Source: a virus (Duplodnaviria > Heunggongvirae > Uroviricota > Caudoviricetes). From it: DNA of 64,000 nucleotides. Location of the stretch: IMG/VR virus record IMGVR_UViG_3300033143_002040, positions 35,712 through 99,711 of that record. One strand, written 5' to 3'. The translations under genes were made by a program, and so were the position numbers. Shown here piece by piece: positions 3,659-49,800 of the stretch. The notes beneath the pieces were generated by a model that searched no databases, was not told the origin of the DNA, and saw only the letters and a program-made list of their open reading frames with translations. Numbering within the stretch: the stretch's first letter is position 1; each line of letters starts with the position of its first letter.

Positions 3659-4088
3659 AGTTGAATCATTTAGCGGAATATTTCGCTTCTTGTCTAACTT
3701 CCACCGCGCGCCTATGATGTATCATGGCATTGCATATCCAACATCAGAACATGCATATCAAGCCGCGAAGACATTAAACGAAAATTCACGAATGAATATT
3801 TCGATACTAGGCACGCCATATGAAGCAAAAAAGTACGGCAAAACAGTTAAGCGACGGTCTGATTGGGATGAAGTAAAATTAGAAGTCATGACGGAAATTG
3901 TACGTGCAAAATTTATACAAAATCCGTCACTAAGAGAAAAATTACTTGCAACGGATGATGCTATCCTAGAAGAAGGAAATACTTGGGGTGACACATACTG
4001 GGGCACATGTAAAGGCGAAGGCGAGAATCATTTAGGAAAAGTCTTAATGGATTTGCGTAATAACCTAAATACTAATACAGAGGAATAA
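3627..4088 (+). CDS. NADAR (YbiA/DUF1768) family N-glycosidase / ADP-ribosyl-processing enzyme
   Basis: VESFSGIFRFLSNFHRAP...YPTSEHAYQAAK aligns with E. coli YbiA INFYSTSDDYGDFSNFAAWP...WPTSEHYFQAQK; start chosen at internal Met (MNTYSQ), ORF track start 3600. Confidence 0.8.
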   Translation: MNTYSQQDQCKVESFSGIFRFLSNFHRAPMMYHGIAYPTSEHAYQAAKTLNENSRMNISILGTPYEAKKYGKTVKRRSDWDEVKLEVMTEIVRAKFIQNPSLREKLLATDDAILEEGNTWGDTYWGTCKGEGENHLGKVLMDLRNNLNTNTEE

Positions 4089-14436: not shown

Positions 14437-15351
14437 ATGAGCAATAAATATAAATACAGCGAAATATTTACTTCGATTCAAGGCGAAGGAACCTACTGTG
14501 GAACACCGACAGTTTGGCTTCGTTGGTTCTTATGTAATTTACAATGCAGCGGCTTTGGTCAGAAAATACCAGAAGAACGCAGTACACATATTTTACCATA
14601 TAAAGAATTCGACGTTAGCACTGTAAAGCGTATCGAAGATTTACCTGTTTGGGATTATGGTTGTGATTCTAGCTATAGCTGGGCGCGGAAATTCAAAGAT
14701 TTATGTCCTGCGCATACAGCAAGACAACTTGCACAGAAACTAGAAAACGAATTACGCAAGTTTGACAACAATCCTGACGGAAAATTCTTGCTAAATAATG
14801 AGCGCGAGCTAAAAGATGTACATTTTTGTATGACAGGTGGTGAGCCGATGCTTGAACGTACACAAGTAGGGCAAGTCGAGTTACTGCATGCGTTAGCAGA
14901 TAATGTGAACTTACCAAGATTTATTACAGTAGAGACAAACGGAACACAGACGCTAACAGATGAATTAGCAAAAACAATCTCGTCATACGTAGCAAGCGGC
15001 GGAGAATGGTTTTGGTCGTGTTCGCCTAAGCTATTATATACAAGTGGTGAGAAGCCAACTAAGGCAATTAAGCCTGCTGTAGTCAAAACGTATCAAGACG
15101 TTAGTGCGTTTGGACAACTAAAGTTTGTTGTAAGCAACAGACCAGAAGCATGGGATGAACTTGAAGAACGAGTTGAAGATTTTAGGAATGCAGGGATTGA
15201 GTGGCCTGTTTGGATAATGCCCGTTGGCGCGACAGTCGAATCACAACAAGACGAGGATGCTATTGCAATAATTGAGGAAACTATTCGTAGAGGTTATCAC
15301 GTTGCTACGAGAGTACATTGTTACATTTGGGGCAATCAGATAGGAACATAA
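14437..15351 (+). CDS. queE: QueE-like 7-carboxy-7-deazaguanine synthase (radical SAM)
   Basis: FTSIQGEGTYCGTPTVWLRWFLCNLQC matches the QueE signature; FCMTGGEPM SAM-binding motif; Cys spacing is atypical (CNLQC ... distant C). Confidence 0.65.
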   Translation: MSNKYKYSEIFTSIQGEGTYCGTPTVWLRWFLCNLQCSGFGQKIPEERSTHILPYKEFDVSTVKRIEDLPVWDYGCDSSYSWARKFKDLCPAHTARQLAQKLENELRKFDNNPDGKFLLNNERELKDVHFCMTGGEPMLERTQVGQVELLHALADNVNLPRFITVETNGTQTLTDELAKTISSYVASGGEWFWSCSPKLLYTSGEKPTKAIKPAVVKTYQDVSAFGQLKFVVSNRPEAWDELEERVEDFRNAGIEWPVWIMPVGATVESQQDEDAIAIIEETIRRGYHVATRVHCYIWGNQIGT

Positions 15352-18725: not shown

Positions 18726-18926
18726 ATGGCAGACGAAATAAAAAACTTTCGTTTAAAAATACGCAATACAGCTAGTCTCAAACGGAGAGAATTATCATTT
18801 GGTTTGGCAGAAGCGCAGCTTCTAGATACCGAAATAGTTGCTCTTGAAGCACATATAGAAAAATTAGAACTGGAGCTCCTACAGACAAAAACAATGTCCA
18901 TTGATATTGTGGGACGTGATTTTTAA
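18726..18926 (+). CDS. hypothetical coiled-coil protein (66 aa)
   Basis: ORF. Confidence 0.35.
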   Translation: MADEIKNFRLKIRNTASLKRRELSFGLAEAQLLDTEIVALEAHIEKLELELLQTKTMSIDIVGRDF

Positions 18927-18939
18927 ATGTGGAGTTTTA

Positions 18940-19995
18940 ATGAAAAGACTATTTATAGGGCTAGTCGCTCTATTGACAATCAGTACGGGGCAAGCACACG
19001 ACTTAGCTGATAGAATGAATGAGGTGCTTCCTGCCGTTGCGTATATACGAGTAGAACAATTTGCTGTCCGCGATAAGCTAAATCCTCTTACCAAACTTAC
19101 CTCTTCCATCCGAGTTCCAACCACACCTATCATTGGTACAGGATTTATCATTGATAATAACAACGTAGTAACAAATTATCACGTTATTGCTTCCGCTGTA
19201 AAACATAATACTGAAATTCACATAACCTTTGAAGGAAGTAATCAACGATTTCTAGCAACAGTTATTGGTTACGATAAAATAGCTGACGTTGCTTTGCTAA
19301 TAATTCCAGGTGAACACCAAAGTGTTGAGATATTAGATGACACTGATTTACGGATGGGCGATCCCGTATTCAGCATATCACATTTTTATGGCATCGGTTG
19401 GTCAGGCACACAAGGTGTAATTAGTTCTATTCGCCGGCAAGATCAACGATATCCTTACATCAATAACCTACAACTACAGCTATTGCAAGGCAGTGGTAGT
19501 TCAGGTGGCCCTGTATTCAATATGAATGGCGATGTCATTGCATTAAATCGAAGTATTCTTTCTATGTTTCCAAAATCAATAATACAAACACGTAGTTCCG
19601 TTCTTTCTATGGTAGGCTATCCTGTAAGGGGAGATACATTGATAGCTGCAATCGCGGGCATACGCAAGGATATCATTGTCGTGTATCTTGATCTAGGAGT
19701 GTCATTGATAACATTTGGAAAGGATAGTATGTTTCACCTTAACTATGCAAATGGAGATGATGAATACCCTATCGGCGTAATGGTAATGAGCATTGATAAA
19801 AATATATCTACTACTTTGCAACAATCAGATATTATTATCAGCATAGAAGGCAATAAATTCTCTGATCCTTCTGAGTTGTTTACATGGCTTAATGAACAGA
19901 TCAAATATAAAGTTGGAGATACAGTTAACATACAAGTTTACCGAGACGCAGAAATCATAAATATTGCAGTACCAATAACAATAGCAGGATTATAA
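18940..19995 (+). CDS. secreted trypsin-like serine protease (HtrA/DegP S1C-like) with N-terminal signal peptide
   Basis: MKRLFIGLVALLTISTGQA signal; His in NYHVIAS, Asp in DVALLII, Ser in GSSGGPVF. Confidence 0.85.
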   Translation: MKRLFIGLVALLTISTGQAHDLADRMNEVLPAVAYIRVEQFAVRDKLNPLTKLTSSIRVPTTPIIGTGFIIDNNNVVTNYHVIASAVKHNTEIHITFEGSNQRFLATVIGYDKIADVALLIIPGEHQSVEILDDTDLRMGDPVFSISHFYGIGWSGTQGVISSIRRQDQRYPYINNLQLQLLQGSGSSGGPVFNMNGDVIALNRSILSMFPKSIIQTRSSVLSMVGYPVRGDTLIAAIAGIRKDIIVVYLDLGVSLITFGKDSMFHLNYANGDDEYPIGVMVMSIDKNISTTLQQSDIIISIEGNKFSDPSELFTWLNEQIKYKVGDTVNIQVYRDAEIINIAVPITIAGL

Positions 19996-20223
19996 ATGGA
20001 ACAAATCAAAGTTTACACGAAGAAACGCTGTCCGTATTGCACGGCGGCCAAACTATGGTTATCTCAAAGAAACTATGACTACACAGAAATTAGTCTCGAT
20101 GATGCTGATGAACAAAACAAATTTATTTCCTGTTATCCTGCACTTCGAACTGTTCCGCAAATATTTGTTGGGGATAAGAGCATTGGCGGGTTTAACGAAC
20201 TTACCAAATCTAAACTTGCGTAA
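19996..20223 (+). CDS. glutaredoxin / NrdH-like redoxin
   Basis: CPYC active site; 75 aa; TVPQIFVGDKSIGG. Confidence 0.8.
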   Translation: MEQIKVYTKKRCPYCTAAKLWLSQRNYDYTEISLDDADEQNKFISCYPALRTVPQIFVGDKSIGGFNELTKSKLA

Positions 20224-20253
20224 TATGAAGTAGATTAGATAAATACTGTTATA

Positions 20254-20895
20254 ATGAATTACGAATTTTACTATAACAGGCTGAATCAACGATCGGAAAA
20301 TCGGTTGCTAGAAGGCTATACTGAGAAACATCATATTATCCCCCGCTGCATGGGTGGCACGGATGATCCTGAGAACATTGCTATATTGACCGCTAGAGAA
20401 CATCATATAGCACACCAGTTATTGGTTAAGATGTATCCTGGCCATCACGGATTGATCTCCGCATTAAACGTAATGAGAACTGCTAGCAGTAAAAAGTATA
20501 GCTGGATTAAACGATTATGCCACGAACAATTATCTAAGAACTACAATGATCGTTATGGGGTTGATCGAGCGAAAAAGATAAGGAATAAACAATCTGTTTC
20601 GAAGATGGGCAATACCAACGGGCGATTCGGAAAAGGATGGAAAGCTACACCCGAACAAAAAGCAAGGATGTCCGAGGCACATAAAGGACAACTCGCATGG
20701 AATAAGGGCAAGAAAACTGGACCACAGACCCACGAACGCATTTCTCATCGTGCTCGTAAATGTCAAAAATCTTGTACAGTCGATGGCATAAAATATTCTT
20801 CGCGCAATGAAGCTGCTGACAAATTAAATATTCATATCACCACTATATATAAATGGCTTGCAAGCGGGCGAGCAAAGGAACACACAAATGGCTAG
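20254..20895 (+). CDS. HNH homing endonuclease (free-standing, copy 1)
   Basis: HHIIPRCMGGTDDPENIAILTAREHHIAH; paralog of 45414..46106. Confidence 0.8.
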   Translation: MNYEFYYNRLNQRSENRLLEGYTEKHHIIPRCMGGTDDPENIAILTAREHHIAHQLLVKMYPGHHGLISALNVMRTASSKKYSWIKRLCHEQLSKNYNDRYGVDRAKKIRNKQSVSKMGNTNGRFGKGWKATPEQKARMSEAHKGQLAWNKGKKTGPQTHERISHRARKCQKSCTVDGIKYSSRNEAADKLNIHITTIYKWLASGRAKEHTNG

Positions 20896-21184
20896 ACCGA
20901 AACCGACAATTATTCTAGAACATACTGATTCAAAAACATACAAGAGCGAGCAAGTTCTTCAAGCGGACTATATCTATGCAGTATACTTTGACGGGCGACC
21001 TATCAATCTTCGAACATTGAATTCTCTTGTCAACTATCCTGGCCCTAAATATAAAAAAGTCAGTTTTTCAAATTCTGGTCATGCGTTCAATCTAGCAGAG
21101 CGCCTTAATCGTATATTCAAGACAGATTCATTTGCTGTATGGAAACTAACTGGTGGTGAAATTATAACCGAAGATACAATATAA
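20888..21184 (+). CDS. hypothetical protein (98 aa; start MARPKP)
   Basis: ORF. Confidence 0.4.
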   Translation: MARPKPTIILEHTDSKTYKSEQVLQADYIYAVYFDGRPINLRTLNSLVNYPGPKYKKVSFSNSGHAFNLAERLNRIFKTDSFAVWKLTGGEIITEDTI

Positions 21185-21185
21185 G

Positions 21186-21554
21186 ATGGCCGCTGAACAT
21201 ATCCAACCGTTAAAAGATTTCATATTCAGTGAATTAAACGAAGATGTGTTTCCAGAAGAAACTCATAAATCATTAGATGGACTCATGTTCAACGCGCCTA
21301 CTACTTTGCGCCTGACTCATTTTGGCTATAATATTTTAAGAAATATCTACGATCACGAAAAATTTCCTCTTGAAGAAAAGCTAACTGGTCGAGAATTATT
21401 GACACTCAAAAATCATGTGACTTGGCCTTACTATCTTCCTGGGAGTCATGCTAATCTTTTCCTGTTTACCATCAAACAATCATTCATTCTCAAACTCAAC
21501 GGTGGAGATGTGAAAAAGTGGCTCAAAAATCTATATGAGAAGAATTCCAGTTAA
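21186..21554 (+). CDS. hypothetical protein (122 aa)
   Basis: ORF. Confidence 0.45.
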   Translation: MAAEHIQPLKDFIFSELNEDVFPEETHKSLDGLMFNAPTTLRLTHFGYNILRNIYDHEKFPLEEKLTGRELLTLKNHVTWPYYLPGSHANLFLFTIKQSFILKLNGGDVKKWLKNLYEKNSS

Positions 21555-21610
21555 AACAACGACTTAAGTACAGGTGTCGTAAGTTATTGATTCTTATGGA
21601 TATAAAGTGC

Positions 21611-21639
21611 TTGACATAAGTGCTTGATTCCTGTAATAT
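21611..21639 (+). promoter_or_regulatory. sigma70-consensus promoter TTGACA-17-TAATAT
   Basis: TTGACA 21611-21616, TAATAT 21634-21639; flanked by AAGTGCTTGA repeats. Confidence 0.6.
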
Positions 21640-21686
21640 AAGCACAATGGTATAGAACTATGTCATAGATACAGGAGAAATTCATA

Positions 21687-22010
21687 ATGGCGATTAATCG
21701 ACGCAAAACAGAAGAAGTACGCACAAGCACTCTAGCCGATGGCACGAGTGTAGAATGCGTAGTATGGGCAATTGAGCTAGACGGCGAACAGGTCGGCGAA
21801 GCTTGTGCTACATACAAGACAAAGACCCAGCGCACCTGGGATGCTAGCATGACCGTTGACGGAGTTTCAGTTTCGGTAGAAGGCATTGCTTCAATTAGCA
21901 AGGCCGTAACTGCATTGAACGATCAGTTGGTAGCTGCAACGGCTACTGATGCTGCTGATACAGCGGATGCTAACATTGAGATTGTTGAGTCTGAGGACGC
22001 TACAGCGTAA
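21687..22010 (+). CDS. small acidic Ala/Thr-rich protein (107 aa) in its own promoter-terminator unit
   Basis: RBS AGGAGA; followed by intrinsic terminator. Confidence 0.55.
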   Translation: MAINRRKTEEVRTSTLADGTSVECVVWAIELDGEQVGEACATYKTKTQRTWDASMTVDGVSVSVEGIASISKAVTALNDQLVAATATDAADTADANIEIVESEDATA

Positions 22011-22030
22011 TCTACTCCTTTCCAAGTAAA

Positions 22031-22056
22031 GAGGCCCCGCTAAGGGGCCTTTTTTA
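22031..22056 (+). terminator. rho-independent terminator (GGCCCC-gctaa-GGGGCC + T6)
   Basis: perfect 6-bp GC stem and U-tract. Confidence 0.8.
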
Positions 22057-22152
22057 TACCTGTAAGGAATTCAATGACTTAATACGTGTACGTAACTATC
22101 TGTTTTTAAAGAGTTTCCACTTAAGTGCTTGATGTTAAACAGGTTATAGTTG

Positions 22153-22181
22153 TTGACAAATGGCGCGCAGTTCCATATAAT
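22153..22181 (+). promoter_or_regulatory. sigma70-consensus promoter TTGACA-17-TATAAT
   Basis: perfect -35 and -10 hexamers. Confidence 0.7.
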
Positions 22182-22238
22182 ACACATACTAGATAGACAA
22201 ACGCAAGTCACATAAACGATTAATAAGGAACACGCACC

Positions 22239-23351
22239 ATGGCTAAGACAGACACGAATCAAAAAAGCATTCCAGTTCGACCTTCTGAACTTGTAGAAGT
22301 AGTCGAGCATGTAATGTCAGTAGGCCGTCCTTGCATGATTTGGGGACCGCCAGGAATCGGCAAATCAGACATTATCGCACAGATCGGAGCGAGAGAGAAT
22401 CGTCCCGTGATCGACCTGCGTTTGCTCTTGATGGAGCCGACTGACCTTAAAGGCATCCCTTTCTACGATCCGAAGACGGAAACGATGAAGTGGGGCAAGC
22501 CAGGTGAGCTTCCAGGTGAGGCCGATACAGAACTGCATAACGCTATTCTGTTCCTTGACGAGATTAACGCTGCACCGCAGTCGGTTCAGGCCGCTGCATA
22601 TCAGTTGATTCTGAATCGCAGAATTGGCGAGTACGAGCTTCCTGAATGTGTAAGTATCGTTGCTGCTGGTAACAGAGAGACTGATCGCGCAGTAACTTTT
22701 CGCATGCCGTCAGCACTTGCTAACAGGTTCATGCACTTTGAATTGATCGTATCTTTCGAAGATTGGCAGGACTGGGCAATTCGACACGGCGTACATCCTG
22801 ACGTAGTTGGTTTCTTGACTGCGCATCCGAACTACTTGTTCCAGTTTGATCCGAAGAGTGGCGACAAGGCTTTTGCTACTCCGCGTTCGTGGACGTTCGT
22901 TGGAGAGGCTCTGACTGACAAGCTTTCTGACAAGCTGAACGAAGTCATGGTCGCTGGCACAGTTGGTCTTGGACTCGCTACTGAATTCATGCAGAGCAGG
23001 CGCTTGAAAGGCAAGCTTCCGAATCCTCGCGACATCGTGTTGGGCAAGGTTACTAAGCTGAAGGAAGACAAAGCGATTGACGTTTCTGCTAAGTACTCGC
23101 TGGTTATCGGCATGTGCTACGCAATGTCTGAAATCAAGCAAGAGTTTGAAATGGACAAGTCTAAGGGTGACAAGGACTGGAACAAGGTCACTGACAACTT
23201 TTTGAAGTTTATGATGATCCCTGAACACTTCAAGAAGGAAATGGTCATCATGGCTGCTGTTACAGCATTCCGTCGCTACGACTTGGACTTCGATTCTGAG
23301 ACTCCCACTTTCAACAAATTCTTCAAAGAGTACCAAGAGTGGATTGTCTAA
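22239..23351 (+). CDS. MoxR/CobS-like AAA+ ATPase
   Basis: Walker A GPPGIGKS; Walker B ILFLDEINAAP; 370 aa typical of CobS/MoxR. Confidence 0.85.
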   Translation: MAKTDTNQKSIPVRPSELVEVVEHVMSVGRPCMIWGPPGIGKSDIIAQIGARENRPVIDLRLLLMEPTDLKGIPFYDPKTETMKWGKPGELPGEADTELHNAILFLDEINAAPQSVQAAAYQLILNRRIGEYELPECVSIVAAGNRETDRAVTFRMPSALANRFMHFELIVSFEDWQDWAIRHGVHPDVVGFLTAHPNYLFQFDPKSGDKAFATPRSWTFVGEALTDKLSDKLNEVMVAGTVGLGLATEFMQSRRLKGKLPNPRDIVLGKVTKLKEDKAIDVSAKYSLVIGMCYAMSEIKQEFEMDKSKGDKDWNKVTDNFLKFMMIPEHFKKEMVIMAAVTAFRRYDLDFDSETPTFNKFFKEYQEWIV

Positions 23352-23377
23352 ATGGTTAACTGGTGCAACGTGACTTG

Positions 23378-23412
23378 CGCTATGATTGGCCGCCCCGAGA
23401 CTTTCTTTGGGC
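23378..23412 (+). terminator. rho-independent terminator
   Basis: GCCGCCC...GGGCGGTC stem followed by TTTTTT. Confidence 0.7.
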
Positions 23413-23536
23413 GGTCTTTTTTATGAGATTCAAACAGTTACAGGCGCTCGTAAGTCATTGATTCTATTAGAGCAGAAATACTCCAAAAATAGTTATAAGT
23501 TATTGATAACTATAGTAATAGAGATGCATAAAGTGG

Positions 23537-23565
23537 TTGACGCAAGGGGTGTTTTACCGTATAAT
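23537..23565 (+). promoter_or_regulatory. sigma70-like promoter TTGACG-17-TATAAT with upstream inverted repeat
   Basis: -35 TTGACG 23537-23542; -10 TATAAT 23560-23565. Confidence 0.65.
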
Positions 23566-23594
23566 ATGTATATAAATTGATAGGAACTAATCAA

Positions 23595-25088
23595 ATGTCA
23601 CAGAAGTTTTCCCCAGAAGATAAATTAGTCAAAGCACGTATTGATTTTATTTACAACGATTGCGTGTTTCTCGGCAACTTAGCACTTCGACTTGAATTGG
23701 TCGATGCTACCGCATGGTGTCCTACTGCGGCAACTGACTTCAAGCATTTGTACTACAATCGAGATTTTATTGATCGTTGTTCACTTGAAGAAACCAAATT
23801 TGTGATTGCACACGAGGTTATGCATTGTGTGTACGATCACTTTTCTCGTCGTGAGGAACGTGATCCGCGTCTGTACAATTGTGCTGGCGACTACGTAATT
23901 AACTTGGAACTGAAGGATCTTGGAATCGGTTCTTTTCCTTCCAGTAATACCATGATGGATCCGAAGTACGAAGAATTCATCAAAGAGAATTTCCCTGAGC
24001 GTTACCGAAAGTATAAGAAAGAATTTGCTGGTGGTGAGCCAGGTGTGCTTTGCGAAGAAAAGTATCGCGATATGTCTTCTGAGGAAGTCTACAACATCCT
24101 AAAGAAAGAACAGGATGAGCGGGACAAGCAGAATGGTAAAGGCGAGAGCGACGGCCAGTGTGGCGAATGTGGCGGTACTGGACAGGCCCCAGGCGATCAA
24201 GGTGAAGGCGATCAAGATGGTGAAGGCGAAGGTGGCAGCGGCCAATGTGGCGGAAGCACCCCAGGTGATTGCCCGTCTTGTGGTGGTTCTGGCAAGAGTA
24301 AAGGCGGCCAGAACGGACCAATTTCACACGATATGCATATGGATCCTGAGGCTGGTGATGCTGATGGTGACGAAAATGATGGCTCGCAAGGTCCGATCAA
24401 GATTGACCAAGAAGAAATTGATCGGATGGACAGCGATATGCGTAAAGCGATCATGGACGCAGCAGCAGTTGCATCCGAAGCACGTGGTGGCGCAGGTAAC
24501 ATCCCAGGTGGTGTTAAGCGTCTGATTGATGATTGGACAGATTCTACAGTTGACTGGCGCGAGTATTTGAATAACAGCATTCAGTCAACTTTGAAGTCAG
24601 ATTACACATGGCAGCGTCAGAGCAGGAAGTCTCGCTCTACGAATTACTACTTGCCTGCAATGGACAACGATATGATGGTTAGTGTCGATCTTGCGATTGA
24701 TACGTCAGGTTCAATGTCTGATGAAATGTTGAGAGACATTCTTGCAGAGGTTAAAGGTATCATGGAGCAGTTCGCAGACTTCAAGCTTCGTGTATGGTGC
24801 TTCGATACTGAAACGTATGAAGTTCACACGTACACACCTGACACGGTTGATGAGATTTATGACTTCGAGTTAGAAGGTGGCGGTGGTACGATGTTTGAGT
24901 GCAATTGGGAAATGATGCGTCAGGAAGAAATTGTTCCAGATCAGTTCATTCTCTGCACAGACGGTTACCCCTGCGGAACTTGGGGCGAAGAGGATTACTG
25001 CGATACAGTATTCTTGGTGCACGGTCGTAAGAGCATTGTTGCTCCCTTCGGTGTTACGGTACATCACGAAAACGCTACTGACGATTAA
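23595..25088 (+). CDS. VWA-domain protein with N-terminal HExxH zincin-like motif and Gly/Cys-rich acidic linker (CobT/MoxR-partner-like)
   Basis: IAHEVMHCVYDH; MIDAS DTSGSMSDEM; linker GECGGTGQAPGDQGEGDQDGEGEGGSGQCGGSTPGDCPSCGGSGKS. Confidence 0.7.
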   Translation: MSQKFSPEDKLVKARIDFIYNDCVFLGNLALRLELVDATAWCPTAATDFKHLYYNRDFIDRCSLEETKFVIAHEVMHCVYDHFSRREERDPRLYNCAGDYVINLELKDLGIGSFPSSNTMMDPKYEEFIKENFPERYRKYKKEFAGGEPGVLCEEKYRDMSSEEVYNILKKEQDERDKQNGKGESDGQCGECGGTGQAPGDQGEGDQDGEGEGGSGQCGGSTPGDCPSCGGSGKSKGGQNGPISHDMHMDPEAGDADGDENDGSQGPIKIDQEEIDRMDSDMRKAIMDAAAVASEARGGAGNIPGGVKRLIDDWTDSTVDWREYLNNSIQSTLKSDYTWQRQSRKSRSTNYYLPAMDNDMMVSVDLAIDTSGSMSDEMLRDILAEVKGIMEQFADFKLRVWCFDTETYEVHTYTPDTVDEIYDFELEGGGGTMFECNWEMMRQEEIVPDQFILCTDGYPCGTWGEEDYCDTVFLVHGRKSIVAPFGVTVHHENATDD

Positions 25089-25089
25089 A

Positions 25090-25476
25090 ATGTATCAGAT
25101 GGTCAATCATAACGGCAACAAGGCTTACGAAGTCGATAATAAGCTTTATCAGACTCAAATGGAAGCTAAAGTTGATATTCAAGTGCAAAGGGCGAAGATT
25201 GATATAGAAATATTGCGTCTTGAGCAACAGCGAATAGCAGACTTTAGAAAAAAAGTTGGCCTTACTTTGCTAGAGAATGATGCAAGTGTCATGTTCACAA
25301 AGACAAGACAAGCAGTAATCGAATTGGCATTTGCTCACGAAATGGGAAAGACTCAGTACGTGATAGACCAAGCAGCATTAGCAGTTGCAAATACTCGCAC
25401 AATGTACGACTCAGTTTGCAGAAAGATTTTTAAGATTTGTTTGAAGCATGGACTCAAGAGTGAGCATTTAAAATGA
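25090..25476 (+). CDS. hypothetical protein (128 aa; start MYQMVNH)
   Basis: internal start right after upstream stop. Confidence 0.45.
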   Translation: MYQMVNHNGNKAYEVDNKLYQTQMEAKVDIQVQRAKIDIEILRLEQQRIADFRKKVGLTLLENDASVMFTKTRQAVIELAFAHEMGKTQYVIDQAALAVANTRTMYDSVCRKIFKICLKHGLKSEHLK

Positions 25477-25727
25477 CTTTAGGTGAAATAGTAAATAAGC
25501 GTCAACTTGACCTTAGACTTGAAAAGGCAGAAGCAGAATTGCAGTCTGCCTTAAGAGTGCTTGACTACTTGCTAAAAGAATCGGCCGCGACATTGTTTGG
25601 ATATGAGCGTAAGCCGAATCATAAAGAACGTTGTTATGCTAACGCCAAGTCACTTGACGTAGCACACGAAAAAATTGAGAAGTGTAAGAAAGAATTGTTT
25701 CAATTCAAATTGAAACACGGTGAATGA
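25473..25727 (+). CDS. small protein with KEYFKKKLxG-like C-terminus
   Basis: ...CKKELFQFKLKHGE. Confidence 0.4.
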   Translation: MTLGEIVNKRQLDLRLEKAEAELQSALRVLDYLLKESAATLFGYERKPNHKERCYANAKSLDVAHEKIEKCKKELFQFKLKHGE

Positions 25728-25737
25728 GAGAAGAAAG

Positions 25738-26991
25738 ATGGCTAAGAAAATACAAAATTATGAAGTAATGAAAGGTTTGTCTGGACAAGGCATTATCAAG
25801 TCTTGGACAAAGGGCGTTCCGTTTGAGTCACAAGCGCGGGATCAGCTAAAGAATATTGCATCGTTGCCGTTCATCCACAAGCATGTAGCAGCGATGCCTG
25901 ACGTACATTTAGGTAAGGGCGCGACGGTTGGGTCAGTAATTGCAACTAAGGGTGCGATTATTCCTGCTGCGGTAGGAGTAGATATTGGTTGCGGAATGAA
26001 TGCTGTACGACTTTCGTTGAAAGCTGCGGATTTGCCTGACACATTAACAAACGTGCGCGGAGAAATTGAGCGCATGGTTCCTGTTGGTCACGACTATCAC
26101 ACACGTTCGCGTATGGGATCAAAGTGGCACAACAAGACTGACAAGCTTTTGAACAACACTAACCAGCAGTTAGACCCAGGAATGCGGTCGATTCTTGCAA
26201 AGCATCCTACGATTGGTAAGATAGGTCGTGACTTTGAAGATCGCGCATACCGTCAGATTGGTACGCTTGGTGGTGGTAATCACTTTATTGAACTTTGCTT
26301 AGACGAGGCGGATGATGTTTGGGTAATGCTTCACTCAGGTTCACGTAATCCAGGAAACTGTATCGGCAACTATTTCATTCAGCTTGCTAAGAAAGAAATG
26401 GAACGATTCTTCATTCAGCTTCCTGATAAGGATTTAGCATACTTGGCCGAAGGCACAGAGTACTACGATGATTATATCGAAGCTGTTGGCTGGGCGCAAG
26501 ACTTTGCATATCGTAATCGACAGGTTATGATGGAACTTGTAATCATGGCACTGGAGCGCAAGCTGCCGCCGTTCTTGATTACTAAGGAAGCAATCAACTG
26601 TCACCACAACTATGTTTCGATGGAGAATCACTTCGGTGCGAATGTACACGTAACTCGCAAGGGTGCTGTACGTGCGCGTGTAGGCGACTACGGAATTATT
26701 CCAGGATCAATGGGTGCTAAGTCATTCATCGTTCGCGGACTTGGTAACAAGGATTCATTTAACTCTTGCTCTCACGGAGCAGGACGTTCACATTCACGAT
26801 CAGCGGCTAAGCGATTGTTTACAGTCGAGGATCACGAACGAGCTACGGCAGGTGTTGAGTGTCGTAAGGATGCTGGTGTGCTTGATGAGACACCTGCTGC
26901 TTACAAGGACATTGATGCTGTTATGAATGCTCAGAGAGATTTAGTTGAGATTGTTCACACGTTGAAGCAAGTAGTCTGCGTAAAAGGATAA
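25738..26991 (+). CDS. rtcB: RtcB RNA 3'-phosphate ligase
   Basis: MPDVHLGKGATVGSV, GVDIGCGM, GGGNHFIEL, CHHNY, HGAGRS motifs all present and in order. Confidence 0.9.
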   Translation: MAKKIQNYEVMKGLSGQGIIKSWTKGVPFESQARDQLKNIASLPFIHKHVAAMPDVHLGKGATVGSVIATKGAIIPAAVGVDIGCGMNAVRLSLKAADLPDTLTNVRGEIERMVPVGHDYHTRSRMGSKWHNKTDKLLNNTNQQLDPGMRSILAKHPTIGKIGRDFEDRAYRQIGTLGGGNHFIELCLDEADDVWVMLHSGSRNPGNCIGNYFIQLAKKEMERFFIQLPDKDLAYLAEGTEYYDDYIEAVGWAQDFAYRNRQVMMELVIMALERKLPPFLITKEAINCHHNYVSMENHFGANVHVTRKGAVRARVGDYGIIPGSMGAKSFIVRGLGNKDSFNSCSHGAGRSHSRSAAKRLFTVEDHERATAGVECRKDAGVLDETPAAYKDIDAVMNAQRDLVEIVHTLKQVVCVKG

Positions 26992-27028
26992 GATAATGAG
27001 TGAAAGAGACTGTTCAGCAAAAAACATA

Positions 27029-27271
27029 ATGCAGATGATTGGATTCTGTTGGGTATTATTCATTGGTCTTGCATTCGTTACTGGTTGTAGCGAACCAACG
27101 CCACAAGAAAGATTTGAAACTTATGTTGCTAATACAGGCACTCCGAATGGTGCAACTAACATCGAAATCATAGATGAAAAGTGGTACACATTTGAGTACA
27201 ACGATCAGTGTTTCTTGGCAACGAGATACTGGCGTCACGCTGCATTAACGAAAATTGATTGCGAGGATTAA
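27029..27271 (+). CDS. putative lipoprotein (lipobox LAFVTGC)
   Basis: MQMIGFCWVLFIGLAFVTGC signal + lipobox; ORF track start 26996. Confidence 0.5.
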   Translation: MQMIGFCWVLFIGLAFVTGCSEPTPQERFETYVANTGTPNGATNIEIIDEKWYTFEYNDQCFLATRYWRHAALTKIDCED

Positions 27272-27475
27272 ATGAATTTCTTAGACGCTAAGGAACTACA
27301 GAAACATGCGATGAAGGCCAAGTATGGCTGGCGTAGGTTCTTTATTCCTACACCCAGGTCCATTAAGAACGATGCATTTAATACTGCCTTTCGCATCAGA
27401 AATAATGGTGGTCGGCCAGAAGAACAAACTTCGGCACGACTAGACTTTGTACGTAAGTATCCGATAAAGGATTAG
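27272..27475 (+). CDS. hypothetical basic protein (67 aa)
   Basis: ORF. Confidence 0.4.
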   Translation: MNFLDAKELQKHAMKAKYGWRRFFIPTPRSIKNDAFNTAFRIRNNGGRPEEQTSARLDFVRKYPIKD

Positions 27476-27476
27476 A

Positions 27477-27788
27477 ATGAGTTTTTGCTCACATTGCGGA
27501 TCGAAGAACGCACCTGTAACACCATCTGCTAACAAAGGATATACGATGTATGTTGCAGAGGAAGGTGAATCTTGTACAGAATGTTACGATCCTGATATTG
27601 AAATGTTAATGTGCGATGATTGTAACGGAATAACTTACAAAAGCATCAGCATCACTCCGCCACCGATGTCCAATCCCAAAACAACTAAGATTCTGGGTGG
27701 CATAGGCTCGCGGAAGGTGTTGTGGCTTATTGGTGGCGAGTGGGTCGAGAAAGGCTGGCTCTTGCCGCAGGTAGGTTCAGATGTTTAA
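27477..27788 (+). CDS. hypothetical Zn-ribbon protein
   Basis: CSHCGS...CTECYD...CDDCNG. Confidence 0.45.
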   Translation: MSFCSHCGSKNAPVTPSANKGYTMYVAEEGESCTECYDPDIEMLMCDDCNGITYKSISITPPPMSNPKTTKILGGIGSRKVLWLIGGEWVEKGWLLPQVGSDV

Positions 27789-28119
27789 ATGGAACACAGA
27801 CAAGATTAGTTCAGATTTGCTAGACATTCCTAATGTCGAAGCGGTCATTGAACACGACCCTGGCGGGGATGTAGACACTAGCAACCTTCTCGCTAAAGTA
27901 ACTGGCGCAGACGAATACATTTATGTGTGCGGGTTTAGTGTTGACAATGTTATCACTGATCCTAGAGACACTGACATTGAAATGGTCGAAATTACAGATC
28001 AAAGCGGTGACGGGTTACAAAGCATCGACTTTGAGGTCGCGCGGGCGTATATAGCCGTACGTCAATATTTCGTAGGGCAGAATGTAGAAGTCGTTAACAG
28101 ACTAAAGGATTATTTCTAA
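27781..28119 (+). CDS. hypothetical protein (112 aa)
   Basis: ORF. Confidence 0.45.
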   Translation: MFKWNTDKISSDLLDIPNVEAVIEHDPGGDVDTSNLLAKVTGADEYIYVCGFSVDNVITDPRDTDIEMVEITDQSGDGLQSIDFEVARAYIAVRQYFVGQNVEVVNRLKDYF

Positions 28120-28224
28120 TGAATGATACAATAGTATTACTTATCATGTTCTCGCCAGTCTTTAGCATGTGCATATATAATGCGATCACCATGTGTGAAG
28201 CATTGAAGACAAAGGAAAGTTGAT

Positions 28225-28503
28225 ATGACTTGTAAATGTGGAAGTACACGCATCGCAGGAGTGGGTGCAAAATGTTCTGATTTATGTTATACTACATTAC
28301 CTGGCCGTAAAGATATTGACGGTTATGTGGTAAATGGGCTTGGCATCGGCGGTGGCGACTATGTAGAATTCGACTACTGCCTCGACTGTGGGCAACTACA
28401 GGGAACGTTTCCAATCACTGAGAAGTCGATCAGCGAAGCGTTGGATGACGCAGGTCTCTCCGAAAGAGAATACGACGAAGACGGATTTGAGGTACGAACA
28501 TGA
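28225..28503 (+). CDS. hypothetical Zn-ribbon protein
   Basis: CKCGS...CLDCGQ. Confidence 0.45.
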   Translation: MTCKCGSTRIAGVGAKCSDLCYTTLPGRKDIDGYVVNGLGIGGGDYVEFDYCLDCGQLQGTFPITEKSISEALDDAGLSEREYDEDGFEVRT

Positions 28504-31256: not shown

Positions 31257-32765
31257 ATGGATAGTATAATGTCAGGGTTTAGCTTGGTACCGAGCTTTGG
31301 CGGACAGATCGCGATTGGGATAGGTGTATTTCTATTCCTCGTTGTCTTTGTCGCCAAACTGTATCGAGTGGTAGTAAGGCCGAACGAGGTGCATGTTGTA
31401 CAGAATCGCAACTCGACGGTAATGTATGGTAAGACACCCGAGCCTGTTGAAGACGCTAATGGCGATTTAATTGAAAGCACAGATCACATCGTCAGCAACA
31501 GTTATTACGCATGGCCTACTTGGTGGCCGCGTATTGGTGTAACAGTTAGAATTTTGTCACTGGCTATTTTCGACCAAAAGCTAACTGATTACGAAGCATA
31601 CGATATTGGTAAGGTTCCGTTTATGGTTGACGTAGTAGCGTTCTTCCGTATCTTTGATCCATCTATTGCTGCGAAGCGCACGACTGATCTACATGAGTTG
31701 CGTTGCCAGCTAGAATCAATCTTGCAAGGTGCTACACGTAACATTCTTGCTAAGAACGAGATTGAAGAAATCATGCAGGAGCGTAACACGTATGGTCAAT
31801 TGTTTACGACTGAGACCGAAGATCAACTACGGGCTTGGGGCGTAAGTAATGTTAAGAATATCGAGCTTATGGATATTCGTGACGGTAAGGACTCTAGGGT
31901 TGTTACAGACATCATGGCTAAGAAAGAATCTTTGATTGATCGTGAGTCGCGTGTTGTTCGTGCTGATAACAAAAAGAAAGCCGAGACAGCGGAAATTGAG
32001 GCAGGACAGGTTATTGCTGTTCGCGCTCAAGAAGCTGAACAGTTAGTTGGTGAGCGTACTGCTGAGAAAGACAAGCAGGTTGGTATCGCTAACGAAATGG
32101 CGAATCAGGAAATTCAAGAGCAAGCTAAGACTACTGCTGAGAAAATTATGGCAGTTCAGTTGGTCGAGAATGTTCGTGCTGCTGAGATTAACCGCGAAGT
32201 ACAAGTAGTTGCGGCAGATCAGGACAAGCAGACGTTTGTTATTCGTGCAGACGGTGAGAAGCAGCAGAAGATTATTACTGCCGAAGCTGAGAAAGCTGAG
32301 ACAGTACTTGTTGCTGAAGGTATCTTGGTACAGCAGTTGAAAGACGCTGAAGGTATTCTCGCAGTCGGTACTTCTGAGGCAGAAGCAAAACGCTTGTTTG
32401 AAATGGCTCGCGTTACACCTGAGCTAGAAATGGCTCGCGAAATTGGCGAAAACGAAGGTTATCAGGGTTACTTGGTTAGCATTCGTGGAGTCGAGAAAGA
32501 CGAGACAGTTGGCGTTGAGCAAGCTAAGGCATTGCAGGATGCTGGCATCAAGGTTATTGCTAACACAGGAAATGTCGCTAGCGGCATTGACAGTGTGATG
32601 GATCTTTTCTCCGCAGCAGGCGGAACAGAAATCGCAGCAATGGCTGAGGCGCTTAGTCAGACTGACGCTGGAGCAGCACTGTTGAGTCGTTTGGGTATTA
32701 ATACCGGGACTGAAAAGACAACGACAGCAAAGCCACGCAAAGTAACAGCGGCTAAAAAGTCGTAG
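31257..32765 (+). CDS. SPFH/band-7 (flotillin/YqiK-like) membrane protein with long coiled-coil C-terminus
   Basis: N-terminal TM helix; YDIGKVPFMVDVVAFFRIFDP SPFH core; EA/EQ-rich coiled coil. Confidence 0.75.
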   Translation: MDSIMSGFSLVPSFGGQIAIGIGVFLFLVVFVAKLYRVVVRPNEVHVVQNRNSTVMYGKTPEPVEDANGDLIESTDHIVSNSYYAWPTWWPRIGVTVRILSLAIFDQKLTDYEAYDIGKVPFMVDVVAFFRIFDPSIAAKRTTDLHELRCQLESILQGATRNILAKNEIEEIMQERNTYGQLFTTETEDQLRAWGVSNVKNIELMDIRDGKDSRVVTDIMAKKESLIDRESRVVRADNKKKAETAEIEAGQVIAVRAQEAEQLVGERTAEKDKQVGIANEMANQEIQEQAKTTAEKIMAVQLVENVRAAEINREVQVVAADQDKQTFVIRADGEKQQKIITAEAEKAETVLVAEGILVQQLKDAEGILAVGTSEAEAKRLFEMARVTPELEMAREIGENEGYQGYLVSIRGVEKDETVGVEQAKALQDAGIKVIANTGNVASGIDSVMDLFSAAGGTEIAAMAEALSQTDAGAALLSRLGINTGTEKTTTAKPRKVTAAKKS

Positions 32766-35196: not shown

Positions 35197-35757
35197 ATGA
35201 TGAGTGATACATTAATTTTAAACGCAGATGGCAACCCGTTATCGGTAGTTCCGATTTCGGTTGTTTCATGGATGACAGCAATTAGGCTTGCTTACCAACA
35301 TAAGGTACGAGTTATTAGTTCGTATGAAGATTGGGAAGTGCATTCACCTAGCTGCACCTGGCAGGTTCCGTCGATTGTTATGTGTACGGAATTTGTGAAG
35401 TGGAGCAGGCAAGTCAAGTACAATCGCAGCAACATTTTGCTACGAGATATGTACACCTGTCAGCTTTGTGGTGCTAAGCCGCCTGCGAGTCAGTTAACTC
35501 TTGACCACGTAGTTCCTAGAGTTCACGGTGGTAAGACGAACTGGACTAACATCGTTGCTGCATGTAAGAAGTGTAACCACGACAAGGGTCACAACAAGAA
35601 GATTCGTCCTAAGAGGCTTCCGACTAAGCCGAACTATTACGAGCTAATGGCAAAGAGGATGAAGTTCCCAATTACGATTCGTGATCCAGAATGGCTAACA
35701 TTCCTAGCATGGCCTGAGGATAAGATCGAGATTCGCCCTCCACGGAAGGTTGCATGA
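35197..35757 (+). CDS. HNH nuclease (McrA/HNH-family)
   Basis: CQLCGAKP...LDHVVPRVHGGKTNWTNIVAACKKCNHDKG. Confidence 0.8.
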   Translation: MMSDTLILNADGNPLSVVPISVVSWMTAIRLAYQHKVRVISSYEDWEVHSPSCTWQVPSIVMCTEFVKWSRQVKYNRSNILLRDMYTCQLCGAKPPASQLTLDHVVPRVHGGKTNWTNIVAACKKCNHDKGHNKKIRPKRLPTKPNYYELMAKRMKFPITIRDPEWLTFLAWPEDKIEIRPPRKVA

Positions 35758-45413: not shown

Positions 45414-46106
45414 TTAACTCCTAGTCTTCTCATTTATTTTCTGTGATGTCCAACCCTTAAATCCTTTGTGGACTGATTGGAAGGGTAAATTATTGTCTCT
45501 ACAATATTTACGTAAATTTTTAATCTGTGCTGTCTTGCCTTGTGGATCTGTGACGAGCCAATTACATGCTAATTTTTCTGCTTGTTTTTGTCGGGCTATT
45601 TTATTTTGTGACAGCAACCTAGCATTCTCACCAAATATTTTTCTCGCGTTGTCTGTAATAACACGCGATTTCCACGCTTCTTTTAATGCTTCTCTATGTG
45701 CTTCACTTTTTGGCTTGCCTTTTAAGGATGCAGAACGTTTAGCCTTTATAGCATCCGCATATTCTTTTCCATATCGTTCTTCGTATGTTTTTCCTTTGTA
45801 CAATACAGACATATTTTTTGCATGTTTTTCTCTCAACCATGCATAAAGTATATTACCTGTGCGTTCTTTCTGTTTCCCAGATGTCATCCTGTGTGCTGCA
45901 AATATAAGTTTTCTATTGTGAGGATATATCTTTACAAGCAGTAAGTGAGCTACATAATGTTCCCTTGCAGTCAATATTGAAATATTGCTAGGATCATCGC
46001 CACCGCCCATACACTTCGGAACGATATGATGTCTCTCAGTATATCCATCAAGCACACGATCTTGCGTTCTCTCATTCAGCCTGTTATAGTGTTCTATATA
46101 ATTCAT
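45414..46106 (-). CDS. HNH homing endonuclease (free-standing, copy 2) inserted in the tail-fibre operon
   Basis: HHIVPKCMGGGDDPSNISILTAREHYVAH; ~60% identical to the 20254 copy over the first 75 aa. Confidence 0.8.
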   Translation of the reverse strand: MNYIEHYNRLNERTQDRVLDGYTERHHIVPKCMGGGDDPSNISILTAREHYVAHLLLVKIYPHNRKLIFAAHRMTSGKQKERTGNILYAWLREKHAKNMSVLYKGKTYEERYGKEYADAIKAKRSASLKGKPKSEAHREALKEAWKSRVITDNARKIFGENARLLSQNKIARQKQAEKLACNWLVTDPQGKTAQIKNLRKYCRDNNLPFQSVHKGFKGWTSQKINEKTRS

Positions 46107-46880: not shown

Positions 46881-49800
46881 TTAGGGTGAAAGGGAAATTG
46901 GCAATGCGTTGCCTTCTTCTAATTGTATAAATGCTGCTGCTACTGTAGTTGCTGCATTCAATCCACCTGGGAGTGCCCTATCTAGTACCCAAGTCACACC
47001 GTAGTTTTCACTGATTCTGCCTTCTTCATTAATAATATCTCCGCTTAAGGCAAGAACTACGCCTTCAAGATTTGTAGTTACTGAAATCTGTGCGTTGCCA
47101 TCGCCGGCGCCAGAGATAGTGAATGCTGCGCCGCCTGGAGTATACCCCGTGCCTCTGTCTACAATAGTCACATATAATATGCTGCCATCATCGTAGACAC
47201 CACCAACTTCTAGTACTGCCGGTGTTGCTGATGGGCCTAGTGCACCTTCAAGGGATGCTACTGATATAGTATCTCCGACTGAATATCCTGTGCCAGCTAT
47301 ATCAACAGTAATTATGCTAACTTCACCAGAAGCAATAAGGTCTTTAATGAAATATGAATTTTGAATTTGTGAATTAAACGCTGTTGTGACACGCAATGTA
47401 TCACCAACTACTACACTATCAGTAGTAACAAATGTTGTTTCTACAACATCAGCAAAGTGTACATTACCGTTGCCATTATTAATCCATATGCCGCCTGTAG
47501 CTGCGCCTGATTGATATGATGTTGTCGCACTATTAACCCAATAGATACTTGAAGCTGGAATTACTTGATCTGTGCCGCCGTCAAATACTTTCGATGCTAT
47601 TTGATGAGTTTGTGCGTGTGTACCTTGTGTCCCACGTACCACGCCAGTTAGTTGATTAGCGCCGACATTAACACCATGATATTCAATGCGTTCTGTACCA
47701 ATCCAAGCTATTTGTGGATCATCTAGTGTTGGAGTTGTTGAATACAAATTCGTCACTAAGGTGACTGGAATCAAATTATCAGTCAGTCCAAGTGTTGCTG
47801 TTAATGCTGTGCTTGCACCATCCGCATAACGATGTGAAGTTAAATTCTGTTGCGTATCATGATGGATACGATATGACAATGCTGTTAGCGTAAACGTTGC
47901 ATTGACACCAGACGCATCTGCTGTTGTTGCAAATGGACTCGTTGGATATACAAAGTAATCACCTTGATTTGTTACTGTAAATGTAGCTATTGGGCCAGGA
48001 GGTCCTGACGATGTTGTTACAACATCTATTGTGAGTGGCGATCCAAAATCATCTTCGTTATTAGTATCAGGAGTAATTGAGAATCCTGTTGCTACAACTG
48101 GAGGATCTAATGGTACAAACTGCGTAATAGATATTTGAGACAAGATAGTAGCTGACTGGAATCCGAGTCCGCTAGCAGTTGTAACTGTGAAGTCAGTAAC
48201 ATCTCCGTTAACGTCAACTGCATCAACTGTAACTGTTGTTTGGTCAGTCATTGTAATAATGTCGCCTACAACATACGCTGTGCTTCCGACAGTAAGCGTA
48301 GCTGTTGTATCTTCTGTATTAGTTTTAACTGCATCATTTATAGATAGCGTAATGACTGTAGCTGTTACATTAACAATAGTATATGTACCATCATTCTCAC
48401 CTAGGTTCTCTGAACCTGTAATAATAAGTTTCTGTCCAGAAGCAAATCCTAACGTATCAAACGCTGTGCCGCCAGTACGAGTAATTGTATCTGAAGTGTT
48501 TGATCCGTCAAACGCAAGACTTTGACTGACTACTGGAGCAACACGAATAACTTCTGCACCATCACCGCTTGTGAATGTTCCGTTGCTACCAACACCATCA
48601 AAATCAGTTTCATCTTGTGCTGCAATTGTTGTTTGTAGTCTGACACCGCCCGTAGCTGTTAGTGTTTCACCTACAGCATATCCTGTTCCTGCTACCGTGA
48701 GAACAATGTCTGTGCTATCAGCAATAACAATCAGATTCTCACGAGGATCTAGCGGTACCATTTCTTCTGAAATACCTGCAGTAACTTGCGGATTAATAAG
48801 ATCACCAGCTTCAATGTATGTAAAGATTTGAATATTATCTGTTCCCGTAGATGGTGCTCCGAATGTTCTGAATCCAGTTACATCTTTTACTGATACAAAT
48901 GTTAGTGTTGTTCCTATAAAGAAGTAATCAACATTAAGCACTTGCTCAATATCGTCTACAACAACAAACATGAAGAACGTTGGTACTGTAGATAAGATTT
49001 CAAATTCTTTCGTGCTACTGTTACCACTAAATGTTTCTTCTGATGGAATATTTGCAAACGTTCCTTGAGTTGTATTTGCCGTTCCTGTTGTCAACACAAA
49101 CCCTATACCTGCATCATTAGATGATGCTTGTAAAATTGGGTCGCCGGCAATAATGAATGCCGTACTACCGCCAGTAAGTGTAAAGCCAGTGACAACACCT
49201 GCTGCCACAACATCAACGGTAATATTAGAACCGTTATTACTACTCGGACCATCTTGCATAATGATTGTATCGAATCCTGCTAGCTGTGCAGTAGTGTCTG
49301 GAGGTGTCGAAGTATTGACTAATACATCTGAGGTAGATAATGTAATAACAGTAGCAGTAACATCAACGATAGTATATGTACCATCATTCTCGCCTGTATT
49401 TTCAGATAGCGTTACAATAAGTCTTTGACCCACTGTAAATTCGCCAGCTGTATTAAACGCCGTACCATCTGTACGCGTAATCGTATCTGCGCCACCTACT
49501 AATGCGAATGTTAACCCTGATGTATAATCATTAGATCCTGTATTCGCTTTGTATCCTGAGCCGCCAGCGAATGAACCATTCGGGAACACGCCGTCATAAT
49601 TAGATTGCGTGCTGCCAGGAACAGTAGTTGTCAAGTCATCAGGTGAGCCGTCAAGTGTAGTAACACTCGGATCATTAACTGAAGACTCGAATCCAATTTG
49701 ATCCCACGGAGTTGTATCGTGAGGTACTGATGATCCATTCTCAAAGACTAGTGCTGTTAACTGTGCACCAGATCCTGATCCACCTAGTAGATCAACTGGA

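Follow-up and report, generated by a model that had tools for sequence, protein, structure and literature searches.

Two descriptions come closest to the gene pair analyzed here. gp24 and gp25 of phage N4 belong to the 14 genes that form the core of N4-like phages, are made as middle transcripts and have their function listed as unknown (PMC4193335; PMC2784036), and Iyer et al. 2021 described the same chaperone-cochaperone-peptidase pair in jumbo phages, proposing for it a role in virion assembly and processing (PMC7824862). The present pair lies in a 64,000-nt stretch of viral DNA (IMG/VR record IMGVR_UViG_3300033143_002040, record positions 35,712 to 99,711), which is referred to below as the window. 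It consists of a gene for an AAA+ ATPase followed by a gene for a protein that joins a zincin domain to a VWA domain (the VWA-zincin protein), and the two products align to N4 gp24 and gp25 in the same order. Judged from sequence, the pair is the phage version of this known two-gene module, carried by a new phage lineage and belonging to a family already catalogued. The original prediction for this DNA had implied that the zincin-VWA partner is novel, a view that has to be given up, since the protein is a named Pfam pair (PF13203 plus PF09967), equals N4 gp25 and was already included by Iyer et al. 2021 for jumbo phages. The module is among the most widely conserved phage gene pairs of unassigned function: it belongs to the N4-like core, more than 700 sequenced phages carry it, and about 16,000 protein clusters from metagenomes represent it.

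The ATPase and its VWA-zincin partner

The genes and domains of the pair, in positions of the window, are the following; MIDAS stands for metal ion-dependent adhesion site and pLDDT for the predicted local distance difference test of the structural model.

22239 to 23351, + strand: predicted MoxR/midasin-type AAA+ ATPase, 370 aa, N4 gp24 family, phrog_1297
23595 to 25088, + strand: VWA-zincin protein, 497 aa, N4 gp25 family, Pfam DUF2201_N plus DUF2201, phrog_1314
23595 to 24134, + strand: zincin-fold N-terminal domain (residues 1-180), with HExxHxxxxH at 23811-23840
24159 to 24293, + strand: lineage-specific insert in the disordered Gly/acidic linker, with two CxxCxGxG motifs and pLDDT below 65
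24672 to 25064, + strand: VWA domain with complete MIDAS, D369-x-S371-x-S373 (24699-24713, DTSGS), T432 and D456

In the ATPase, the Walker A motif (GPPGIGKS) occupies residues 36-43 and the Walker B motif (ILFLDE) residues 103-108, and K42, S43, D107, E108, N145 and R163 are invariant in an alignment of 21 homologs, N145 being likely the sensor 1 residue and R163 likely the arginine finger. Comparison with Pfam gave a score above the cutoff for AAA_5 (29.0 bits, cutoff 22), whereas AAA_3, the model of MoxR proper (26.3 bits, cutoff 27), and bpMoxR (15.4 bits, cutoff 27) stayed below theirs. The protein also matches phrog_1297 (E 6e-98), and a profile of the 21 homologs found the midasin AAA domain as its closest PDB relative (E 2e-13). 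The region 22239-23351 is thus predicted to encode an intact MoxR/midasin-type AAA+ ATPase. That the ATPase is MoxR-like with canonical Walker A and B motifs, as had been claimed, is supported by the motifs themselves, by the AAA_5 score and by the nearness to midasin.

The VWA-zincin protein matches both Pfam families of the DUF2201 pair in N-to-C order, with 136.9 bits (cutoff 23.2, E 1.3e-39) over residues 12-356 for PF13203 (DUF2201_N, 'putative metallopeptidase') and 48.5 bits (cutoff 26.4, E 1.2e-12) over residues 366-487 for PF09967 (DUF2201, 'VWA-like'), and it matches phrog_1314 (E 5e-103). No CobT, NorD or HNH family was matched in Pfam, and nothing was matched in NCBIfam. Its start was placed at the ATG at 23595 and not at the upstream TTG at 23577, because of an AGGAA ribosome-binding site and the agreement with the N-termini of homologs. 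An AlphaFold model (pLDDT 80) contains two ordered domains and, between them, a disordered segment at about residues 181-262. As the full-length fold search was swamped by the VWA domain, the N-terminal domain was modelled alone; in these predicted structures the nearest folds of the zincin domain include Spartan/Wss1 and ArdC, and the VWA domain matches NorD, the Rea1 MIDAS domain and BchD. The two motifs first read in the protein, HExxH (IAHEVMHCV) and the MIDAS sequence DTSGSM, are therefore present in domains that both Pfam and fold comparison identify as zincin and VWA.

Lack of conservation of the HExxH residues among homologs had been named beforehand as something that would count against this reading, and the opposite was found. 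Within the zincin motif (HEVMHCVYDH, residues 73-82) and beyond it, H73, E74, H77, H82, N95, D99 and N103, together with the MIDAS residues D369, S371, S373 and T432, are invariant among 26 aligned sequences, N4 gp25, PA5oct and Phosso included; D456 of the MIDAS is invariant in larger alignments, and HExxH is kept in all 120 of the closest homologs. The wider family comprises 15,982 clusters (50% identity, E <= 1e-3). Among its best 150 matches there are 139 full-length representatives, of which 124 keep HExxH and all 139 keep DxSxS. The MIDAS is therefore universally constrained, and a minority of lineages can do without catalysis. The representatives in which the glutamate is replaced (P0242, P0272, P0277, P0292, P0298, P0304, P0310, P0314, P0325, P0328, P0360, P0366, P0374, P0379 and P0380) are probable pseudo-peptidase branches, and this loss in about 11% of the representatives, with the MIDAS never lost, appears to be a new observation.

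Many GenBank/RefSeq phage records (H4, H6-H8, H10, H16-H18, H20, H22, H23, H25, H27, H31 and H39), as well as PHROG for phrog_1314, label homologs of the VWA-zincin protein 'HNH endonuclease' or 'homing endonuclease'. The label looks like a propagated mis-annotation, because the protein has no HNH domain according to Pfam. In the 121Q record, the note 'T4-gp25-like' mixes up N4 gp25 and T4 gp25.

What had been described as a Gly/Cys/acidic low-complexity linker is indeed disordered and rich in Gly and acidic residues, but it also holds two motifs conserved as a pair, CGECGGTG (residues 189-196, 24159-24182) and CPSCGGSG (residues 226-233, 24270-24293), both of which are exact CxxCxGxG. The CxxCxGxG motif is the cysteine-rich repeat of DnaJ, which has four of them, and two repeats build one zinc centre. 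Exactly two such motifs occur in 41 of the 120 closest homologs, 16-62 residues apart and separated by a variable Gly/acidic spacer, and they were found in none of N4, PA5oct, Phosso or the 139 distant representatives. The homologs tied to the motif pair are P0001-P0041, P0062, P0072, P0088 and P0119. Since the linker gave no match to Pfam DnaJ_CXXCXGXG even at E up to 10, its likeness to DnaJ is at the motif level only, and the pair can be regarded as a single putative DnaJ-type zinc knuckle. The double CxxCxGxG in the linker appears to be new.

By tblastn, 741 phage records contain the VWA-zincin protein and 849 the ATPase, and the taxon counts of the two are nearly identical; PA5oct-type jumbo phages gave the best matches, at 40% identity for the VWA-zincin protein and 52% for the ATPase. 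Searched at the nucleotide level, the locus matched none of the sequenced phages. The association of the two genes extends to cellular genomes, given that 70 of 80 bacterial and archaeal loci with a relative of the VWA-zincin protein have a homolog of the ATPase upstream of it in the same orientation (70 of the 73 with sufficient upstream sequence). Rough ORF (open reading frame) clustering of the 80 loci found no conserved third gene, high-GC shadow ORFs being a confounding factor in this comparison.

Transcription units and phage context

The remaining features of the locus are listed below. P1 to P3 denote promoters, T1 and T2 intrinsic terminators, and the 12-mer a repeat that is discussed further on.

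21555 to 21628: 12-mer cluster upstream of and overlapping P1, its members being exact at 21580-21591 (+) and 21617-21628 (+), inverted at 21555-21566 (-) and degenerate at 21604-21615
21611 to 21639, + strand: promoter P1 of the 107-aa gene, TTGACA-17-TAATAT, 10/12 consensus
21687 to 22010, + strand: gene for a 107-aa acidic protein in its own single-gene cassette, at the same position in related phages
22028 to 22055, + strand: terminator T1 after the 107-aa gene, GGCCCC/GGGGCC stem then T6, -19 kcal/mol, z -3.7
22070 to 22133: 12-mer copies upstream of P2, at 22070-22081 (-, one mismatch) and 22122-22133 (+, exact, centre about -60 from the expected start)
22153 to 22181, + strand: promoter P2 of the ATPase gene, TTGACA-17-TATAAT, 12/12
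23388 to 23423, + strand: terminator T2 after the ATPase gene, GCCGCCC/GGGCGG stem then T6, -20.6 kcal/mol, z -4.2
23426 to 23507: 12-mers ahead of P3, exact at 23451-23462 (+) and 23496-23507 (+, centre about -70), inverted and degenerate at 23426-23441 (-)
23537 to 23565, + strand: promoter P3 of the VWA-zincin operon, TTGACG-17-TATAAT, 11/12
25090 to 26991, + strand: downstream genes of the VWA-zincin operon, a 128-aa ORF (25090-25476), an 84-aa ORF (25473-25727) and an RtcB RNA ligase (25720-26991)

The sequence TTGAC-N18-TATAAT occurs five times exactly in the window, always on the + strand and 5' of ORFs, with 0.09 occurrences expected (expectations for motifs in the window are analytic zero-order values). 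For comparison we used the metagenomic phages L004/L005/L006 and L007, whose proteins are 82-95% identical to those of the window. In L004 and L007 the -35 and -10 hexamers of P2 and P3 are kept while the spacers have diverged. The host-type promoters reported at both genes are thus real in the sense that 12/12 and 11/12 matches exceed chance and are retained in relatives, and they lead us to infer transcription by the host RNA polymerase early in infection. T1 and T2 are likewise kept in the relatives, T1 being changed there on both arms with pairing retained, and they are two of only five + strand terminator candidates in a hairpin scan of the 40-kb block of + strand genes.

The original prediction had taken each gene to be an independent promoter/terminator cassette. 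This description suits the 107-aa gene, with P1 before it and T1 after it, for which the same organization had been claimed and which has no family match in Pfam and PHROG searches, and it also suits the ATPase gene, which is predicted to be monocistronic. It fails for the VWA-zincin gene. No terminator was found 3' of this gene (fold z -0.4), nor in L007, and the hairpin scan gave no canonical + strand terminator between 23417 and 35820. The next ORF begins at 25090, one base past the stop codon. On account of these two facts, the missing terminator and the adjoining ORF, the VWA-zincin gene can be said to head an operon that runs into RtcB, whose position downstream is shared by L004 and L007. 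The separate transcription units may set an excess of the ATPase over its VWA partner. An Rfam scan of 20000-28500 gave no match.

Promoter-early stem-loop (PeSL) elements of T4-type phages are early promoters and terminators that mediate the shuffling of small genes (Arbiol 2010, PMC2839356; Comeau 2014, PMC4122927). In the window, a GC-rich terminator followed by a promoter of sigma70 consensus stands in the intergenic region at T1 and P2 and again at T2 and P3, whereas P1 has no upstream stem-loop, and by their sequence these two junctions match PeSL elements. The likeness extends to the GC stem-loop with a strong sigma70 promoter around single genes and to its occurrence where related phages differ by inserted or deleted small ORFs, for between T2 and P3 there are no ORFs in the window, three in L004 and one in L007. 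The junctions differ from PeSL elements in flanking conserved genes instead of ORFans and in carrying a locus-specific 12-mer, TAAGTNNTTGAT, that lies outside the published PeSL description.

This 12-mer is present in five exact copies, all on the + strand, all within 21580-23507 and confined to three intergenic regions, when 0.31 copies would be expected for the whole window. Partners in inverted orientation and with slight degeneracy precede these copies, by 8-13 nt at P1 and P3 and by about 40 nt at P2, and every promoter has a copy whose centre is about 60-70 nt ahead of the expected start site; the arrangement is retained in L004 and L007. The reverse complement of the 12-mer fits the consensus of the integration host factor (IHF), WATCAANNNNTTR. 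Read on the opposite strand, four of the five exact copies agree with this consensus, and the whole 64-kb window has only seven matches to it, these four included. The 12-mers may accordingly be sites for IHF, an operator for a phage regulator or a homology patch of a local PeSL family, and such a locus-specific IHF-like repeat suggests common control of the three promoters. The repeat at this locus appears to be new.

Two other assignments of the 12-mer were tried and rejected. As additional sigma70 promoters the copies have no usable -10 element at the correct spacing, and as middle promoters with a T4 MotA box they have a TAnnnT hexamer at about 12 nt only for the copy at 22122, the other four being without one.

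As to the phage itself, the window DNA polymerase is 38-43% identical to those of the PA5oct/RaK2/Atu_ph07 type, and a 5308-aa ORF (46881-62807, - strand; no Pfam match in either half) has an N-terminal part of 2654 aa that shares about 40% identity, across 61% of that part, with the giant 'virion structural protein' known from PA5oct-type phages. These two matches place the window near PA5oct-type phages, and it is predicted to come from an unsequenced relative of PA5oct/RaK2/Atu_ph07-type jumbo phages. The pair lies in a + strand block together with genes for DNA polymerase, a QueE-like protein and RtcB, and the structural genes are on the - strand. By synteny with L004, the + strand block also encodes a 5'-3' exonuclease, a trypsin-PDZ protease, a glutaredoxin and a Band_7 protein. 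Among these early-block genes, the QueE-like radical-SAM protein is at 14437-15351 (+) and, by the same synteny, the trypsin-PDZ serine protease at 18901-19995 (+) and the Band_7/SPFH protein at 31257-32765 (+); the QueE-like protein is a hint of 7-deazaguanine DNA modification. Homing-endonuclease genes were noted at 20254-20895 (+), where an HNH-type motif was read in the sequence, and at 45414-46106 (-). The former suggests a recent insertion, because L004 and L007 lack it at the equivalent site.

Proposed function and alternatives

The reading that we favour for the whole, and in which we have moderate confidence, is that the MoxR ATPase and the zincin-VWA protein form a module which, expressed early by the host polymerase, remodels or cleaves a selected target in the early-to-middle phase. 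By analogy with CbbQ-CbbO, NorQ-NorD, RavA-ViaA, BchI-BchD and Rea1/midasin, a hexamer of the ATPase would dock the VWA protein, the MIDAS metal would grip an acidic residue of the target protein, and ATP hydrolysis would pull on or remodel this target while the tethered zincin cuts it, so that the logic would be that of a two-component, substrate-selective, ATP-dependent protease or maturase. The CxxCxGxG zinc knuckle in the acidic linker of this lineage probably adds an element that binds the client or rigidifies the assembly. As for the target, we lean weakly towards a phage or host protein complex that is dealt with during replication, in the early-to-middle phase, and away from a role confined to late virion assembly; our grounds are the kind of promoter, the neighbouring genes and the fact that N4 makes its pair as middle transcripts. 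The window adds several handles on the module, namely the subclade with double CxxCxGxG, the transcriptional layout with its VWA-RtcB operon and the IHF-like repeat, which do not reveal the function itself.

Some points weigh against this reading. The GenBank record of the PA5oct ATPase carries the note 'ESI-MS/MS', which may mean association with the virion and would then favour assembly. In 15 of the 139 family representatives the catalytic glutamate is replaced, mostly by Q, N, V or I, with most of them retaining the histidines, and proteolysis is therefore not universally required. Early timing is deduced from promoter sequence, and partly independent roles of the two genes would also be compatible with separate units and an intervening terminator. 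Literature searches on DUF2201, COG3864, N4 gp24/gp25 and phage MoxR-VWA pairs turned up genome annotations and the comparative papers of Iyer and Aravind, but no biochemical or genetic work.

The alternative that survives best keeps the same mechanism and changes the target and the timing, the pair being a chaperone-protease that folds, assembles or processes structural proteins late in infection. It has already been published by Iyer et al. 2021, who drew a parallel to Acidianus two-tailed virus and its MoxR-VWA pair, which drives tail development (PMC7824862), and apart from the 'ESI-MS/MS' flag on the PA5oct product it can draw on a 121Q 'structural protein' gene located 0.7 kb upstream of the pair and on the 5308-aa virion protein homolog in the window, which plausibly needs chaperoning. 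However, the pair stands in the early/replication block behind consensus sigma70 promoters, on the strand opposite to the structural block, N4 gp24/gp25 are middle transcripts (PMC4193335), and many Actinobacteria and other cellular genomes carry the same pair as an operon on the chromosome, with no conserved third gene in the rough clustering mentioned above. On balance we consider a late assembly role possible, if rather unlikely.

Less probable again, and in our opinion doubtful, is that the pair is an early phage ATP-dependent protease in which the MoxR motor and a MIDAS-guided zincin would destroy or remodel a host or replication-associated protein in the manner of Cdc48-Wss1 and p97-Spartan, with the DnaJ-type knuckle as client clamp; a DNA-bound roadblock or an immunity factor would then be the candidates for the substrate. 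If true, it would give N4 gp24/gp25, and a module common to hundreds of jumbo phages, their first function.

A related proposal sees in the pair a protease for host takeover or counter-defence, which, shortly after infection, would selectively degrade or inactivate some host protein, for instance a factor of immunity, a protein of the nucleoid or a roadblock to replication. The early host-type promoters suit it, as do the nearest folds of the zincin, since Spartan/Wss1 and ArdC are proteases acting on DNA-bound proteins or against restriction, and the neighbourhood of DNA and nucleotide metabolism seen in the window, N4 and 121Q. Yet phages of widely differing lineages and hosts have the pair as core genes, whereas the distribution of counter-defence genes is usually patchy, and it occurs in cellular genomes as well. 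A separate suggestion, the defence context noted for such pairs, is not supported by PADLOC, which gave no match for the VWA protein and only a marginal IetA match for the ATPase (E 0.0035 over 37 residues). We rate counter-defence as unlikely, somewhat below the early protease just described.

It is also conceivable that the zincin is non-catalytic, serving as a metal- or client-binding module, so that the pair would be a pure remodelling chaperone without proteolysis. The representatives that lack the catalytic glutamate and keep the MIDAS without exception speak in its favour, and other MoxR-VWA systems often have an inactive peptidase domain joined to VWA (PMC7159879). Against it stand the full HExxH of the window protein and of all 120 closest homologs and the invariance of E74 in the alignments, N4 gp25 included, and we regard a non-catalytic zincin here as improbable, more so than counter-defence.

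Finally, the CobS/CobT-like chelatase of the original prediction, a metabolic module that would insert cobalt or another metal into a tetrapyrrole or metalloenzyme, is very improbable and largely refuted: a weak partial match of the ATPase to phrog_249 'porphyrin biosynthesis' (E 1e-6, residues 23-127), the BchD VWA domain among the fold matches and the insertion of metals by the MoxR-VWA systems NorQD and CoxDE (PMC7159879) are outweighed by the lack of any CobS/CobT match in Pfam or NCBIfam, by an N-terminal domain that is a zincin with invariant HExxH and not the CobT N-domain, and by the absence of cobalamin or tetrapyrrole genes among the neighbours examined, not every ORF having been searched.

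Comparison with known systems

The homologs of the N4, Schitoviridae, RaK2, 121Q, PA5oct and Atu_ph07 types resemble the window pair in their protein families, in the order of ATPase before VWA gene and in the invariant HExxHxxxxH, MIDAS and Walker motifs. In N4, Phosso, Atu_ph07, XaC1 and the Ecwhy_1 group, the two genes are separated by an intergenic gap of 130-170 nt, and PA5oct differs from the window in having extra genes between them, a homing endonuclease among these. The window proteins are only 24-29% identical to those of N4 and 40-52% to those of PA5oct, and they carry the linker insert of about 80 aa with two CxxCxGxG motifs that N4, PA5oct and Phosso lack. Compared with these homologs, the window has a full terminator and a consensus promoter between the genes, and its VWA gene is transcriptionally joined to the RtcB operon, an arrangement that is probably lineage-specific because N4 and 121Q do not have it. 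In Phosso, an RNA ligase is encoded 1.5 kb downstream of the pair (L003, 7790-9016).

A distant relative, 121Q (L088, E. coli host), has what reads as a PeSL-like organization around the same gene pair, with three strong sigma70 promoters, including matches of 12/12 and 11/12, stacked before the ATPase gene (740-1000), a 12-bp stem-loop between the ATPase and VWA genes (2383-2410), and a terminator plus promoter after the VWA gene (3873-3937). The stacked promoters and the stem-loop thus suggest that in this phage also the pair would be transcribed early by the host polymerase, with some attenuation between ATPase and VWA gene.

Among known zincins, the closest to the N-terminal domain are the minigluzincins (selecase, projannalysin and proabylysin) and the minimal zincins SprT, Wss1 and ArdC. 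Compared by description, p618 (MoxR) and p892 (VWA) of Acidianus two-tailed virus are a virus-encoded chaperone pair like that of the window (PMC7824862, PMC7159879), but they have no peptidase domain and serve extracellular tail development in an archaeal virus. The cellular systems CbbQ-CbbO, NorQ-NorD, RavA-ViaA, BchI-BchD and CoxD-CoxE, together with Rea1/midasin, share with the window pair the combination of a MoxR/midasin-type AAA+ ATPase and a VWA partner with MIDAS. The VWA partners of these systems and Rea1 differ from the window protein in carrying no zincin, and their outputs are the insertion of metal centres, the reactivation of enzymes and the release of assembly factors, and not proteolysis.

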